Shown: positions 1 to 4,179 of the stretch, one piece after another
How the letters are laid out: the number at the start of each line of letters is the position of its first letter
How positions within the stretch are numbered: the stretch's first letter is position 1
IMG/VR virus record: IMGVR_UViG_2778261693_000004
Coordinates: 1 to 16,397 of that record
Source of the DNA: a virus
Lineage: Duplodnaviria > Heunggongvirae > Uroviricota > Caudoviricetes
DNA length: 16,397 bases
Strand: one strand, 5' to 3'
The notes under the pieces: generated by a model
Database searches by the model: none
The model's input: the letters and a program-made list of their open reading frames with translations, nothing else
What the model was told of the DNA's origin: nothing
Program-made: the position numbers and the translations under genes

Positions 1-1
1 G

Positions 2-166
2 GCATCCAACGCCATTCATGGCCATATCAATGATTTTCTGGTGCGTACCGGGTTGAGAAGCGGTGTAAGTGAACTGCAGTTGCCATGTTTTACGGCAGTG
101 AGAGCAGAGATAGCGCTGATGTCCGGCGGTGCTTTTGCCGTTACGCACCACCCCGTCAGTAGCTGA
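2..166 (+). CDS. 3' end of a plus-strand CDS running off the left edge; by P1 synteny possibly the C-terminus of the type III restriction subunit Res
   Basis: Frame 2 is open from the window edge to TGA at 164-166 (…[31 protein letters not shown]). It converges on the mat-position gene as res does in P1. I do not recognise the residues themselves. Confidence 0.3.
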
Positions 167-501
167 ACAGGAGGGACAGCTGATAGAAACAGAAGCCACT
201 GGAGCACCTCAAAAACACCATCATACACTAAATCAGTAAGTTGGCAGCATCACCAGCCTCATTTTGATGTCATTATTAGCAATTTAAAAAAGTTATGTCC
301 GAATATCATCGCTGAAGGCGTCGAAAACATTGATTGTCATAAGTTATCAAAAGGGATAGGGCTATGGGGCACTCAGGGATATTTTTTCCCATCAATTCCG
401 CTGACGGAGATTGAGTCCATAGATAGTAAGTGGCTATCAGATTTATGAGATGCAGAGAGTTAGGATATTGATATGAACATCTAAGCACCTCATTACTGTG
501 C

Positions 502-954
502 TTAAAAGATGTTATCCTTACCTGTTAATTTACCTTGAGGAACTTTAGTGAGCTCCATCCGATAAAATGCTTTTATCATATTTACAAATGGCTCATATGG
601 TGAATATTCGTTGTCTTGTTTAGTAACGGTGTCTGTCATTGTCCTGATGTAGTCTGCGCTTACCACGTTGTTGTTTGCTTCAATTAGTACCGGCCTGCCG
701 TTCATGAAGGGATCACGCAACCTTACACGCTGGCCAACTCGACCGGTAATAAAGCTGTTTTCCTCTTCCACCAGCACGATAAAACCCTTTTCCTCTTTTT
801 CTCGCAATTCGCGCAGCAGCTGGAGTTCCATATCGCGGCGGCGTTCAGGGTAGCTGGTCCGCTCAGCCATTATCAGCTCATTGTTGATCCATGCAGCAGT
901 CATTGACGCCGGTTTGCCGACGCTCATTGAAACAACGCATATTTTCTTATCCAT
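502..954 (-). CDS. Hypothetical protein at the position P1 gives to mat (between ref and res)
   Basis: ORF 502-981; I place the start at the internal ATG 952-954 (MDKKICVV…), which has an AGGGG Shine-Dalgarno 5 nt upstream. Assignment is by synteny only. Confidence 0.5.
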   Translation of the reverse strand: MDKKICVVSMSVGKPASMTAAWINNELIMAERTSYPERRRDMELQLLRELREKEEKGFIVLVEEENSFITGRVGQRVRLRDPFMNGRPVLIEANNNVVSADYIRTMTDTVTKQDNEYSPYEPFVNMIKAFYRMELTKVPQGKLTGKDNIF

Positions 955-1142
955 AGCGCCCCTACAAAAAAGAAAAGCCACCAGCGGCGGCTTAGCAATA
1001 CAACTGAAGGTAGCGCCCGGTACTCAGACTGTGCCGTCCATGGAATATTTGAAAGGGGATCCATCCGTACCGGGCATGTGATGATTCTGACTGAAGTCAC
1101 TTGTCAGTTGTCAATCATTTATCATTAAAAATAATATATTTA

Positions 1143-1703
1143 TTAGTGCATGATGTTTGCCATCTCATAGGCGTCAGCCAGTAACTCCATCTCTGACTTG
1201 TTCAGCAGGGTGAATTCTTTCTTGCCTCCAACCACACCATCGGCATGAACAGGGACCAGCCAGGGGTATTTTGCTCTTACTTCAGCCGGAGCTGCATGCT
1301 GGTGGTGCCATCTACAAAGAGGCAATTGCTTTTTATGACAACCCGGCGCGGTACGACCGGCGATATGGTGCAGAGACATCTCATTAGATATTACTCCATG
1401 CATATAGCAGGCAATGCAGGGGAGAGTGCCAAGAGCATTGGCGATGCGCCGTTCCTCCGCCGTTGGTGTTCTCCCCTTCAAGCCACGAGATTTTATTTTT
1501 ACCGCGCTTTTCCGCGTTTTGCTGGCTGGTAGGCGCTCTTTCTGTTTAGCGATACGGCGGTCGAGAGTATCCCGCATTTTCTGATATTGAGATTCTCGCC
1601 AGACCGGATCAGCCAACTTCTCCCGTTGCCGAGCGATCGCTCGTTCTCTGGCTGCCTTCTGCCACTTGCGGCACTGTTCAATTTTTTGTTCGATTGTTTT
1701 CAT
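1143..1703 (-). CDS. ref: Ref, HNH-family endonuclease that stimulates RecA-dependent recombination
   Basis: 186 aa, matching P1 Ref length. Cys/His HNH-like cluster (CIACYMHGV…HHIAGRTAPGCHKKQLPLCRWHH). C1 operator and TATAAT upstream; position after cra as in P1. Confidence 0.75.
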   Translation of the reverse strand: MKTIEQKIEQCRKWQKAARERAIARQREKLADPVWRESQYQKMRDTLDRRIAKQKERLPASKTRKSAVKIKSRGLKGRTPTAEERRIANALGTLPCIACYMHGVISNEMSLHHIAGRTAPGCHKKQLPLCRWHHQHAAPAEVRAKYPWLVPVHADGVVGGKKEFTLLNKSEMELLADAYEMANIMH

Positions 1704-1708
1704 ATGGC

Positions 1709-1736
1709 AAAAAAAAAAGGCGGCCTAATGGCCGCC
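1709..1736 (-). terminator. Intrinsic-terminator-like hairpin plus U10 on the minus strand, ending 5 nt before the ref ATG
   Basis: GGCGGCC-TAAT-GGCCGCC (1719-1736) with an A10 run at 1709-1718 on the plus strand, which is U10 after the hairpin on the minus-strand RNA. Confidence 0.5.
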
Positions 1737-1803
1737 AATGATGTCAAGGAGTGAAGTAATGGCAACGTCTTCGTAGTTGACAAAAACTGCGGCTCAATTA
1801 TAG

Positions 1804-1820
1804 CGATCTATTAGAGCAAT
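1804..1820 (-). promoter_or_regulatory. C1 repressor operator (Op2-like) in the ref promoter
   Basis: cgatctATTAGAGCAAT on the plus strand matches the reverse complement of ATTGCTCTAATAAATTT at 13/17. A perfect TATAAT lies on the minus strand at 1797-1802. Confidence 0.65.
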
Positions 1821-1926
1821 GATAGATATTTTGTTTATCGCTAATCACATTTTTTCACTTCAGTACCTGTGTGCTATACTCCTTCTTGATTGATTGGATG
1901 CGGAATACAAACCCGCTCTTTTGTGC

Positions 1927-1954
1927 AGCCTGGCTCCTTGCCAGGCTTTTTTTT
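1927..1954 (+). terminator. Plus-strand rho-independent terminator with no annotated plus-strand gene upstream
   Basis: AGCCTGGC-tcctt-GCCAGGCT hairpin followed by T8 (1947-1954). Candidate extended -10 (TGcTATACT, about 1873-1881) lies 50 nt upstream on the same strand. Confidence 0.45.
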
Positions 1955-2264
1955 ATTTCATCATGGAAGTTGTTAACGCTTTGGACCTTGCTGAACTGAT
2001 TGAGAGGGCTTTGTCAACGTGCCCCAAAAATTCGCCAAACTCAGACATCACTTTAGCAAAACCGCGCCGTGCTTCTTCCTCGGTGGCATTCATCACGAAA
2101 TGTTCAGCACCACGCATACTTTTGACAGGGAACGCAACGGATATTGAATCAATATCAGGCATTCTATCGCTCAGCTTTACAGTGACAATGACGGCTGGCG
2201 ACTGAATATTAGTGCTTACAGACAGCACTACATATTTTCCGTCGATGTTGAAATCCTTTCTCAT
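1953..2264 (-). CDS. cra: Cra (cre-associated) small protein
   Basis: 103-aa ORF with GGTGA Shine-Dalgarno 3 nt before the ATG. Its offset from cre/loxP matches where I recall P1 cra. The equal-length mirror ORF on the plus strand has no Shine-Dalgarno. Confidence 0.5.
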   Translation of the reverse strand: MRKDFNIDGKYVVLSVSTNIQSPAVIVTVKLSDRMPDIDSISVAFPVKSMRGAEHFVMNATEEEARRGFAKVMSEFGEFLGHVDKALSISSARSKALTTSMMK

Positions 2265-2280
2265 ATGTCACCATAAATAT

Positions 2281-2297
2281 CAAAGAATTAGAGCAAT
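2281..2297 (-). promoter_or_regulatory. C1 operator-like site between cre and cra
   Basis: caaagaATTAGAGCAAT, 13/17 to the reverse-complement consensus. Confidence 0.4.
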
Positions 2298-2314
2298 CAT
2301 TTACGCGTTAATGG

Positions 2315-3346
2315 CTAATCGCCATCTTCCAGAAGGCGCACCATTGCCCCTGTTTCACTATCCAGGTTACGGATATAGTTCATGACAATATTTACGTTGG
2401 TCCAGCCACCAGCTTGCATGATCTCCGGTATTGAAACTCCGGCACGGGCCATATCTCGCGCGGCTCCGACACGGGCACTGTGTCCAGACCAGGCCAGGTA
2501 CCTCTGGCCAGAGTCATCCTTAGCCCCGTAAATCAATCGGTGAGTTGCTTCAAAAATCCCTTCCAGGGCGCGAGTTGATAGCTGGCTGGTGGGTGATGGC
2601 GAGGCAACACCATTTTTTCTGACCCGGCAAAACAAGTAGTTATTCGGATCATCAGCCACACCAGAGACAGAAATCCATCGTTCGACCAGTTTAGTTACCC
2701 CCAGGCTAAGTGCCTTCTCTACACCCGCGGTACTAACCAGAGTTTTCGTTCTGCCAATATGGATTAGCATTCTCCCACCGTCTGTACGTGAGATATCTTT
2801 AACCCTGATCCTGGCAATTTCGGCTATACGTAACAGGGTGTTATAAGCGATCCCCAGAAATGCCAGATTACGTATATCCTGGCAGCGATCGCTATTTTCC
2901 ATGAGTGAACGAACCTGGTCGAAATCAGTGCGTTCGAACGCCAATGCCTGTTTTGCACGTTCACCGGCATCAACGTTTTCTTTTCGAATCCGCCGCATGA
3001 CCAGTGAAACAGCATTGCTGTCACTTGGTCGTGGCAGCCCGGACCGACGATGAAGCATGTTTAGCTGGCCCAAATGTTGCTGGATAGTTTTTACTGCCAG
3101 ACCGCGCGCCTGAAGATATAGAAGATAATCGCGAACATCTTCAGGTTCTGCGGGAAACCACTTCCGGTTATTCAACTTGCACCATGCCGCCCACGACCGG
3201 CAAACGGACAGAAGCATTTTCCAGGTATGCTCAGAAAACGCCTGGCGATCCCTGAACATGTCCATCAGGTTCTTGCGAACCTCATCACTCGTTGCATCGA
3301 CCGGTAATGCAGGCAAATTTTGGTGTACGGTCAGTAAATTGGACAT
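2315..3346 (-). CDS. cre: Cre site-specific tyrosine recombinase
   Basis: 343-aa translation (MSNLLTVHQNLPALPVDATSDEVRKNLMDMFRDRQAFSEHTWK…MVRLLEDGD) is recognisable along its full length as P1 Cre. loxP lies about 420 bp upstream. Confidence 0.97.
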   Translation of the reverse strand: MSNLLTVHQNLPALPVDATSDEVRKNLMDMFRDRQAFSEHTWKMLLSVCRSWAAWCKLNNRKWFPAEPEDVRDYLLYLQARGLAVKTIQQHLGQLNMLHRRSGLPRPSDSNAVSLVMRRIRKENVDAGERAKQALAFERTDFDQVRSLMENSDRCQDIRNLAFLGIAYNTLLRIAEIARIRVKDISRTDGGRMLIHIGRTKTLVSTAGVEKALSLGVTKLVERWISVSGVADDPNNYLFCRVRKNGVASPSPTSQLSTRALEGIFEATHRLIYGAKDDSGQRYLAWSGHSARVGAARDMARAGVSIPEIMQAGGWTNVNIVMNYIRNLDSETGAMVRLLEDGD

Positions 3347-3353
3347 TTAACAC

Positions 3354-3575
3354 TCAGACAATAGTTTTAAGTAAAGTGTACAGGATTGGCTCTGCCTTTA
3401 CCTGTTTATGGTTCTCGTCATAGAAACGCCAGCGACCGCGCGTGCGTTCTATTTTCTCTTCACCGCGCGATAATGACAGTTGGCAACTATCACGATCAAA
3501 CCCTTTTGCCCGCCAGTAACCACGGTTTTTCTCAAGCTCAAGATGAGTGGACACTTTAGCAGCTGAATATCCCAT
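3354..3575 (-). CDS. Small ORF (73 aa) immediately upstream of cre and translationally coupled to it
   Basis: ATG at 3573-3575 preceded by GAGGTG 4-5 nt upstream. Stop lies 7 nt before the cre ATG. Basic protein (MGYSAAKVSTHLELEKNRGYWRAKGFDRD…). Confidence 0.35.
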   Translation of the reverse strand: MGYSAAKVSTHLELEKNRGYWRAKGFDRDSCQLSLSRGEEKIERTRGRWRFYDENHKQVKAEPILYTLLKTIV

Positions 3576-3671
3576 TTTTCACCTCTGATTGATTGGTGGT
3601 GCTAAGTGCGCTACGCGAAATCTGGAGCACTAACACTGCCAACATTTCGCAGATTTTACGTAGCGCAACCT

Positions 3672-3693
3672 TGATCAAATGATCAAGTGATCA
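3672..3693. promoter_or_regulatory. Cluster of three TGATCA (Dam GATC) sites in the cre upstream region
   Basis: TGATCA at 3672-3677, 3680-3685 and 3688-3693, with a fourth at 3741-3746. Consistent with the reported Dam-sensitive cre promoter region. Confidence 0.5.
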
Positions 3694-3764
3694 CTATTTG
3701 ACCTGATAAGGTATTGAACTGTATGGATTTACAGGTAAATTGATCATGTTCAATAACCCTTAAG

Positions 3765-3798
3765 ATAACTTCGTATAATGTATGCTATACGAAGTTAT
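3765..3798 (+). other. loxP: loxP recombination site
   Basis: Exact ATAACTTCGTATA-ATGTATGC-TATACGAAGTTAT. Confidence 0.98.
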
Positions 3799-3841
3799 CA
3801 GGTCCGAAGAGGAGTTTACGTCCAGCTGCGCACAAAAATCA

Positions 3842-3858
3842 AGAATTATTAGAGCAAT
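3842..3858 (-). promoter_or_regulatory. C1 operator (Op99-like) upstream of coi
   Basis: agaattATTAGAGCAAT, 15/17 to the reverse-complement consensus. Confidence 0.7.
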
Positions 3859-3924
3859 AAATTTTGAGAGAAAAATCCCACTCCACCAGCTAAAAACTGG
3901 ATTGTTTTTCATAGTTGTTTGACA

Positions 3925-3941
3925 ATTGCTCTAATAAATTA
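3925..3941 (+). promoter_or_regulatory. C1 operator (Op99-like) upstream of coi, opposite orientation to the previous site
   Basis: ATTGCTCTAATAAATTa, 16/17 to consensus. Confidence 0.75.
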
Positions 3942-4179
3942 TAGTTTTGCCGCCGTTACGTAATACGACTTTGGATTCACTATTTAATGTGTCTTCAGCG
4001 TTGTAGAGCGGCTCAGAAGGAAATGAGCAAACAGGGAAACCTTATACAACGGCATTACAGCTATGCATTGCTCATCTTACACACAGCGCAATGTTGTTAG
4101 ATTACCCCAGCATGGATCATGGGTGAAACAGTAGGTCAGAGCTTCAGGCTCTGTGTTGTCAATACAGTGAGGCATAATT

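Follow-up and report, generated by a model that had tools for sequence, protein, structure and literature searches.

Background

The Ref protein of bacteriophage P1 is a RecA-dependent nuclease that damages the host, reduces lysogenisation 40-fold and increases killing by ciprofloxacin (PMC4713147). When C1 was inactivated by heat in a P1 c1.100 lysogen, ref mRNA rose 73-fold, peaking at 30 min, lower and slightly later than the mRNAs of ssb, dmt and kilA; H-NS binds to a CGATAAA motif upstream of ref (PMC4713147). How tightly Ref is controlled matters for the biology of P1 and for the many P1-like plasmids present in clinical Enterobacteriaceae.

The closest described system is the control region of P1 ref itself: the paper of Windle, Laufer and Hays (1988, J Bacteriol 170:4881) names 'attenuator-antiterminator control' in its title, and GenBank entries M23246/M27041 are linked to this work. 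The P1 GenBank record (AF234172) marks the promoter P2ref ('promoter 2 for ref', from the older entry M23246), the C1 operator Oref and a predicted promoter P1ref, and marks no terminator. Our literature search, in which the 1988 paper is represented by its title, found no terminator discussed in connection with Ref.

Three further types of system are comparable. In classical attenuators (trp, his, pyrBI, bgl, T-boxes and riboswitches) promoter and start codon are separated by an intrinsic terminator, and the leader RNA can adopt mutually exclusive helices. In phage lambda (tR1 with N and nut, tR' with Q) a strong terminator lies close to a promoter that is controlled by the repressor or by the stage of infection, and a short RNA is the default product. 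A small RNA that arises by early termination of the late transcript is described for Shiga-toxin phages (PMC7547250).

The locus analysed here is that of the P1 ref attenuator, with the same arrangement of promoter, operator, leader and hairpin; it differs by a run of ten T residues, where P1 has eight. Like a classical attenuator it carries an apparent intrinsic terminator between promoter and start codon, and three mutually exclusive helices (an extended 5' hairpin, an antiterminator and the terminator) can be drawn in its predicted folds; unlike the classical examples, the ref leader has no conserved leader peptide, no conserved antiterminator and no Rfam sensor family. With lambda it shares the repressor-controlled phage promoter, the close strong terminator and a short RNA as probable default, but no nut- or qut-like element was found on the ref strand and read-through may be leakage. 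The terminated leader would resemble the short RNA of Shiga-toxin phages. An attenuator in the P1 ref leader was thus already described in 1988, and its detection here is a correct rediscovery from sequence alone. The additions over the known layout are modest: conservation across genera with compensatory changes in the stem, a T-run that ranges from T6 to T10, and retention of the module in plasmids that have no ref.

The ref locus of a P1-like element

The DNA examined is a stretch of 16,397 nucleotides from a tailed phage (IMG/VR record IMGVR_UViG_2778261693_000004), here called the window. Positions 1100-2320 are 97.8% identical to bacteriophage P1 (AF234172, positions 1462-2680 of the record, in the opposite orientation) and 92-96% identical to P7, RCS47, SJ46 and other P1-like phages. 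The whole window matches parts of E. coli plasmids with 100% identity, for example pMRE162, and is to all appearances a P1-like plasmid prophage. The ref open reading frame encodes a protein of 186 amino acids that matches both P1 Ref and the Pfam family RecA_dep_nuc (E = 1e-50); a search of NCBIfam with Ref gave no match. The features of the locus, in the direction of ref transcription, are:

2315..3346, minus strand: cre
1953..2264, minus strand: c8
1834..1840, minus strand: H-NS binding motif CGATAAA upstream of ref (sequence match; binding reported in PMC4713147)
1820..1825, minus strand: -35 hexamer CTATCA of P2ref (P1 GenBank annotation placed by alignment; 3 of 6 consensus positions match)
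1804..1820, minus strand: C1 repressor operator Oref, ATTGCTCTAATAGATCG (consensus search; annotated as Oref in AF234172)
1797..1802, minus strand: -10 hexamer TATAAT of P2ref (sequence and P1 annotation; kept in relatives, including the ref-less L004 and L005)
1737..1790, minus strand: ref leader up to the terminator (from the predicted fold; presumed start near G1790, 7 nt after the -10)
1760..1766, minus strand: candidate antiterminator strand GUUGCCA, predicted by folding to pair with UGGCGGC (1737..1731, the 5' arm of the terminator); the evidence is weak
1738..1765, minus strand: predicted second promoter P1ref, TTGCCA-16-TGaCATCAT (predicted in AF234172; scan match 9 of 12)
1736..1730, minus strand: 5' arm of the hairpin, GGCGGCC
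1729..1726, minus strand: loop of the hairpin, ATTA (AUUA in the RNA)
1725..1719, minus strand: 3' arm of the hairpin, GGCCGCC
1709..1718, minus strand: U-tract of the terminator, T10 (U10) here; P1 and most relatives have T8
1708..1704, minus strand: spacer GCCAT
1703..1701, minus strand: start codon ATG of ref, not preceded by a Shine-Dalgarno sequence
1143..1703, minus strand: coding sequence of ref, RecA-dependent HNH nuclease (open reading frame, Pfam, match to P1 Ref)

Promoter, operator, leader and hairpin are those of P1, save for a few operator bases and the length of the T-run. A search with the C1 operator consensus yielded eight matches in the window, with 0.1 expected. The original prediction, which had placed the hairpin between a C1-controlled promoter with TATAAT at 1797-1802 and the ref ATG, agrees with both the P1 annotation and this operator match. 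The leader is predicted to fold into a 5' hairpin (about 1787..1767) followed by an unpaired C/U-rich stretch, CUUCACUCCUUGACAUCAUU.

A terminator-like hairpin in the ref leader

The hairpin in the leader has a perfect stem of seven G/C pairs and a loop of four nucleotides; folded alone it reaches -15.0 kcal/mol, and its pairs have probabilities of 0.93-1.0 in the ensemble of the leader. The T10 run abuts the stem on the minus strand, and there is no T-run on the other strand. A G/C-rich stem-loop of about 5-14 bp with a short loop, a U-tract of about 6-9 that directly adjoins it, and a structure that is maintained in evolution (here with all alignment cells paired) characterise intrinsic terminators, and all of these are found at this position. 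The element has every sequence feature that would be expected of a strong intrinsic (Rho-independent) terminator. It had been predicted as a 7-bp GC hairpin followed by U10 that ends five nucleotides before the ref ATG, and every coordinate and feature given for it is right.

Among 28 terminator-like sites in the 16.4-kb window, the leader terminator ranks first. With stricter criteria (a perfect stem of 6 bp or more with five or more G/C, then seven or more T), three sites remain in the window and none in 300 windows simulated with a Markov model. The hairpin pattern has no second copy in the window, and a repeated palindromic element was rejected for this reason.

Conservation within the P1 group

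A search with a 26-nt pattern of the leader retrieved 81 viral contigs and two genome contigs, and a Ref-based search added 80 loci, all from close relatives; distant loci were fetched singly. In 72 distinct P1-like contexts the stem hardly varies: there is one G-U change, the stem end runs into the T-run in a few cases, and one ref-less plasmid has a mismatch. Loop (ATTA, ATCA or TAAA) and T-run do vary, and the spacer is GCCAT, GACCAT or ACCTT. The region of P2ref and the leader, 67-86% identical to diverged relatives, evolve faster than the flanking genes and the hairpin is kept; no segment of the region is less conserved than the leader (67-85% identity).

The T-run has eight residues in 59 of the 68 distinct ref-bearing contexts (165 loci), nine in five, seven in three and ten in one. 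The predicted U10 is thus present in the window but as a rare variant: P1 has T8, and U8 is usual. With the ref-less elements included, the T-run of P1-like elements extends from T6 (ref-less) over T7, T8 (the norm) and T9 to the T10 of the window. This length polymorphism could modulate termination, or could be due in part to errors of assembly.

Conservation beyond the P1 group

We fetched the genomic contexts of 12 more distant Ref homologues (49-68% identity) and read the regions upstream. Half of them share one order of elements: a C1-operator-like site with a -10 hexamer, a short leader, a hairpin followed by T5-7, and the ref start. The Ref proteins of these six hairpin-bearing elements are only 56-68% identical. 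The other six (up to 58% identity) lie in different surroundings, one example being a position immediately behind an ERF recombinase gene, and no terminator was found there. The hairpin-bearing elements are of two types:

Klebsiella (L171, L180) and Salmonella (L172): C1-operator-like site (e.g. ATTGCTCTAATAATTAT), TATAAT or TATTAT, leader of 36-45 nt
L171, L180 and L172, terminator: GACGGTC-(TACG/TTCG)-GACCGTC and T5-T7, then 13 nt to the start codon
Pantoea type (L173, L181, L182): operator-like site, leader of about 28 nt, GCCGCC-TCCG-GGCGGC and T7, then about 100 nt to the ATG

When the P1-type and Klebsiella/Salmonella hairpins are aligned, 100% of the cells are paired. Of the seven stem pairs, two differ in both partners (G-C to A-U and C-G to U-A) and a third has become U-G, in a set of hand-picked sequences in which the double changes probably go back to a single event in one lineage. 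These compensatory changes give modest but real support for selection on the terminator. Selection is suggested because the same order recurs with different stems and because two pairs have both partners replaced.

In the Klebsiella and Salmonella elements, the 13 nt between T-run and start codon leave no room for a promoter downstream of the terminator; ref would thus have to be transcribed either through the terminator or from a start that overlaps it. This spacing is the strongest argument here that attenuation, and not a bypass promoter, is the conserved design.

All three hairpin lineages have a C/U-rich motif (CUCCYUGAC/CCUGA) 0-9 nt before the hairpin, in a leader that has otherwise diverged. 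It reads CUCCUUGAC in the P1 type (window 1742-1753, minus strand), CUCCCUGAC in the Klebsiella and Salmonella elements, and GUCCUGAUC or GUCCUGACC in the Pantoea type.

Probable attenuation of ref and alternative explanations

We consider it likely that hairpin and U-tract form a working Rho-independent terminator in the 5' leader of ref, i.e. a transcriptional attenuator. From the C1-repressed promoter P2ref, RNA polymerase would transcribe a leader of about 55 nt and then the hairpin and the U-tract; most complexes would be released at the U-tract, giving an RNA of about 75-80 nt, and the minority that reads through would produce ref mRNA. The same hairpin would shield ref from read-through of the upstream genes cre and c8, which are expressed in the lysogen. 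The net effect would be that a nuclease which is harmful to the host and an obstacle to lysogeny is made late and in small amounts. From the features of the element and its place we infer that it terminates efficiently and insulates ref.

Attenuation is the best reading because the placement is conserved (in the window, L171-L173 and L180-L182 the terminator separates the promoter of the regulated gene from its start codon), because the stems show compensatory changes, and because of the title of the 1988 paper. The peak of ref mRNA, which is lower and later than that of other genes under C1 control, fits attenuation. On the same grounds, the original prediction of an attenuation that keeps the nuclease at a very low level holds in its main part; the control is not tight, given the 73-fold induction, and P1ref, itself a weak prediction, could bypass it. 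Since ref induction depends on C1, transcripts from P2ref do reach ref and the terminator must be leaky or be overcome. A very low dose of Ref would result from the combination of C1 repression, the reported binding of H-NS, the leader terminator and an AUG that has no ribosome-binding site.

It is possible, if clearly the weaker case, that the hairpin mainly ends the upstream unit, stopping both read-through from cre-c8 and the output of P2ref as an insulator at a module boundary, with any effect on P2ref-driven ref expression secondary; this partly overlaps with attenuation. Two observations point in this direction. Within window positions 1-4000, the only minus-strand terminators are the one in the leader and one after ref (993..975), and the hairpin after c8 (1947..1927) has its T-run on the plus strand only. 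The leader terminator is therefore the first minus-strand stop after cre and c8 and would be the place where cre/c8 read-through is stopped, as the stretch from cre to ref has no further terminator on the minus strand.

The second observation comes from plasmids that lack ref. L003 (NZ_CP122494.1), L004 (NZ_CP126933.1) and L005 (NZ_CP099881.1) have a convergent gene for a KilAC-domain antirepressor in place of ref, as does a further P1-like plasmid, NC_013370.1 of E. coli O111:H- 11128. The similarity of the first three to the window spans promoter, operator, leader and hairpin and ends inside the T-run, which is reduced to T6 and followed by AA and the stop codon of the KilAC gene. Of these three, L004 and L005 retain both operator and TATAAT; in L003 the -10 is gone and the stem has a mismatch. 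In a third type (L006, L007) similarity is lost before the hairpin. The ref-to-KilAC junction is found in at least 32 PLSDB plasmids. With the hairpin kept and the junction inside the T-run, as expected of a module end, the terminator appears to behave like the end of the upstream module, and since ref-less plasmids keep the hairpin, its role would not be tied to ref alone. An insulator would however do equally well upstream of P2ref, and three diverged lineages place the terminator after the C1-controlled promoter, an argument for selection on the damping of this very promoter.

That ref is transcribed mainly from P1ref, escaping the hairpin, while essentially all P2ref transcripts are terminated, is unlikely. 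P1ref is annotated as predicted in the P1 record, has the TG of an extended -10, and by its geometry would start at about 1730-1733, inside the 5' arm GGCGGCC. Against this, it matches the consensus at only 9 of 12 positions, a quality that occurs at chance level (23 matches found and 26.1 expected from shuffled sequence). It is not under the control of C1, yet ref mRNA is induced 73-fold by C1 inactivation. It also has no equivalent in the upstream regions of L171, L172 and L180, where the hairpin abuts the C/U-rich motif. P1ref was rejected as a conserved bypass promoter on account of its chance-level quality and its absence from these distant relatives.

Promoter, leader and terminator could also be a C1-controlled gene for a U-tailed small RNA of about 75-80 nt that has a 5' hairpin and an unpaired C/U-rich stretch resembling an anti-Shine-Dalgarno sequence, with ref as its read-through product, which we regard as quite unlikely. 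The layout is like that of Hfq-type small RNAs, with a promoter of its own and a U-tailed terminator that occur without a downstream gene: at least 32 ref-less plasmids still carry the unit, L004 and L005 among them with an undamaged operator and TATAAT, and each of the three hairpin lineages has the CUCCYUGAC/CCUGA motif closely 5' of its hairpin. A precedent is a phage transcript whose early termination gives rise to a small RNA (PMC7547250). The leader is on the other hand the least conserved part of the region (67-85%), and the loss of the -10 and the mismatched stem of the ref-less L003 suggest decay. A search of positions 1000-2600 against Rfam returned sub-threshold, terminator-driven matches only (suhB/mmgR, 24.5 bits with a threshold of 41; SorX, 22.6 with a threshold of 46.6), and a known RNA family for the leader was rejected since none reaches threshold. 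The more specific proposal, that the terminated leader RNA of about 75-80 nt with its unpaired CUCCUUGA and its U-tail is a putative functional small RNA of the lytic phase of P1-like phages, is made with much doubt; if true, it would explain both the retention of the module in ref-less plasmids and the recurrent C/U-rich motif.

A chance palindrome, or a protein-binding site at the level of the DNA with no role in transcription, is very improbable: the arms of an inverted repeat co-vary for any reason and compensatory changes alone are no proof of RNA function, but in all lineages the adjoining T-run lies on the transcribed strand only, and the hairpin ranks first in the window, never occurred in the 300 simulations and has no second copy.

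Possible antitermination and read-through

If the leader terminator attenuates ref, some transcripts have to pass it. Before the 3' arm exists, the 5' arm is predicted to be held by a helix with GUUGCCA, and the 5' hairpin of the leader can extend by three pairs into the same GUUGCCA, resulting in a topology of three elements as in classical attenuators. The antiterminator state has -14.9 kcal/mol and the terminator state -22.2 kcal/mol, so that the terminator is more stable by 7.3 kcal/mol. Pairing of the 5' arm is 0.85 in the window and about 0.6-0.67 when the upstream sequence is shuffled. The fraction of shuffles that reach the observed value is 0.06 (6%) for the window, 0.02 for Salmonella L172, 0.11 for Klebsiella, 0.34 for Pantoea and 0.65 for E. 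albertii; two of these five lineages exceed 95% of the shuffled controls or approach that level. A conserved antiterminator fold was rejected: it is predicted in the window and L172, and not in the leaders of E. albertii, Klebsiella and Pantoea. An RNA antiterminator in the ref leader is no more than a candidate. It is possible that read-through occurs by simple leakage, perhaps tuned by the length of the T-run, or by a phage factor; P1 is not known to encode an antiterminator protein.

As for a device by which the attenuator could sense a signal, we found no conserved leader peptide and no Rfam family at threshold; a protein that acts in trans may have this role. The window has an upstream open reading frame that begins with UUG at 1783 and runs through the hairpin to a UGA that overlaps the ref AUG (AUGA). 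This frame exists with the T10 run only; in the T8 frame of P1 and most relatives there is no start codon, and a leader peptide was rejected as an accident of the T10 run.

Start codon and translation of ref

The interpretation of the hairpin as a leader element depends on the ref start, and a start elsewhere had been named as an observation that would speak against it. The ATG at 1703 stands: upstream in frame there is a TAG at 1727..1725, in the hairpin loop, with no start codon between it and the ATG, and 15 Ref homologues (47-68% identity) align from their first residues, colinear from residue 1. The N-terminal block AIARQREKLADPxWR is conserved as protein among the homologues. An alternative start was rejected on these two grounds.

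As predicted, ref has no Shine-Dalgarno sequence: the 15 nt before the ATG contain no GGAG-like motif. A weak or absent Shine-Dalgarno sequence is common in the Ref homologues that were read. The AUG has the U10 tract upstream and an A-rich coding start downstream. On general grounds, initiation that is independent of a Shine-Dalgarno sequence and assisted by S1 on the U-tract is plausible, as originally proposed. With such an AUG five nucleotides after the U-tract, read-through ref mRNA would be translated poorly; we infer the manner of initiation from this arrangement.

In the read-through mRNA (window 1655-1714, minus strand), a helix is predicted between UUUUUUGCCAU (U-tract and GCCAU) and GUGGCAGAAGG (codons 13-17), which would enclose the AUG. 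The fold has -30 kcal/mol and z = -2.8, with the terminator included in the calculation. The register of the helix is not kept in E. albertii, and we give it little weight.

Neighbouring elements

After ref, positions 965-993 of the minus strand carry a further terminator, AAGCCGCCGCTGGTGGCTT followed by TTCTTTTTTG, which ends about 10 nt before the Shine-Dalgarno sequence and ATG of the next gene; it is a second instance of a terminator right before a start codon. The gene after ref encodes a hypothetical protein of 150-159 amino acids, in the place of P1 mat.

Upstream of the ref promoter, a candidate small RNA gene lies on the plus strand at 1852-1955, directed away from ref, with the RNA at 1887-1955. 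In it, a promoter-like site (TTTTCA-17-TGcTATACT, 1852..1880) is followed by a strong terminator (AGCCTGGC-TCCTT-GCCAGGCT and T8, 1927..1955), and its RNA is predicted to have 69 nt, -23.2 kcal/mol and z = -3.0. Positions 1870..1952 are 94-100% identical in six P1-like relatives, compared with 85% for the c8 coding sequence and 67-86% for the ref promoter and leader. The candidate is unannotated in the P1 record, and its Rfam match is sub-threshold only. Within it, at 1904-1916 of the plus strand and with the terminator hairpin downstream, lies CGCTCTTTTGTG, which we take to be boxA-like (CGCTCTTTA); the likeness is probably a coincidence.

More than 5000 plasmids match the window. Positions 1-254 are presumably the end of an IS1-type element, to judge by the terminal inverted repeat GGTGATGCTGCCAACTTACTGAT on the minus strand, and the best plasmid matches to the remaining sequence begin at position 255.
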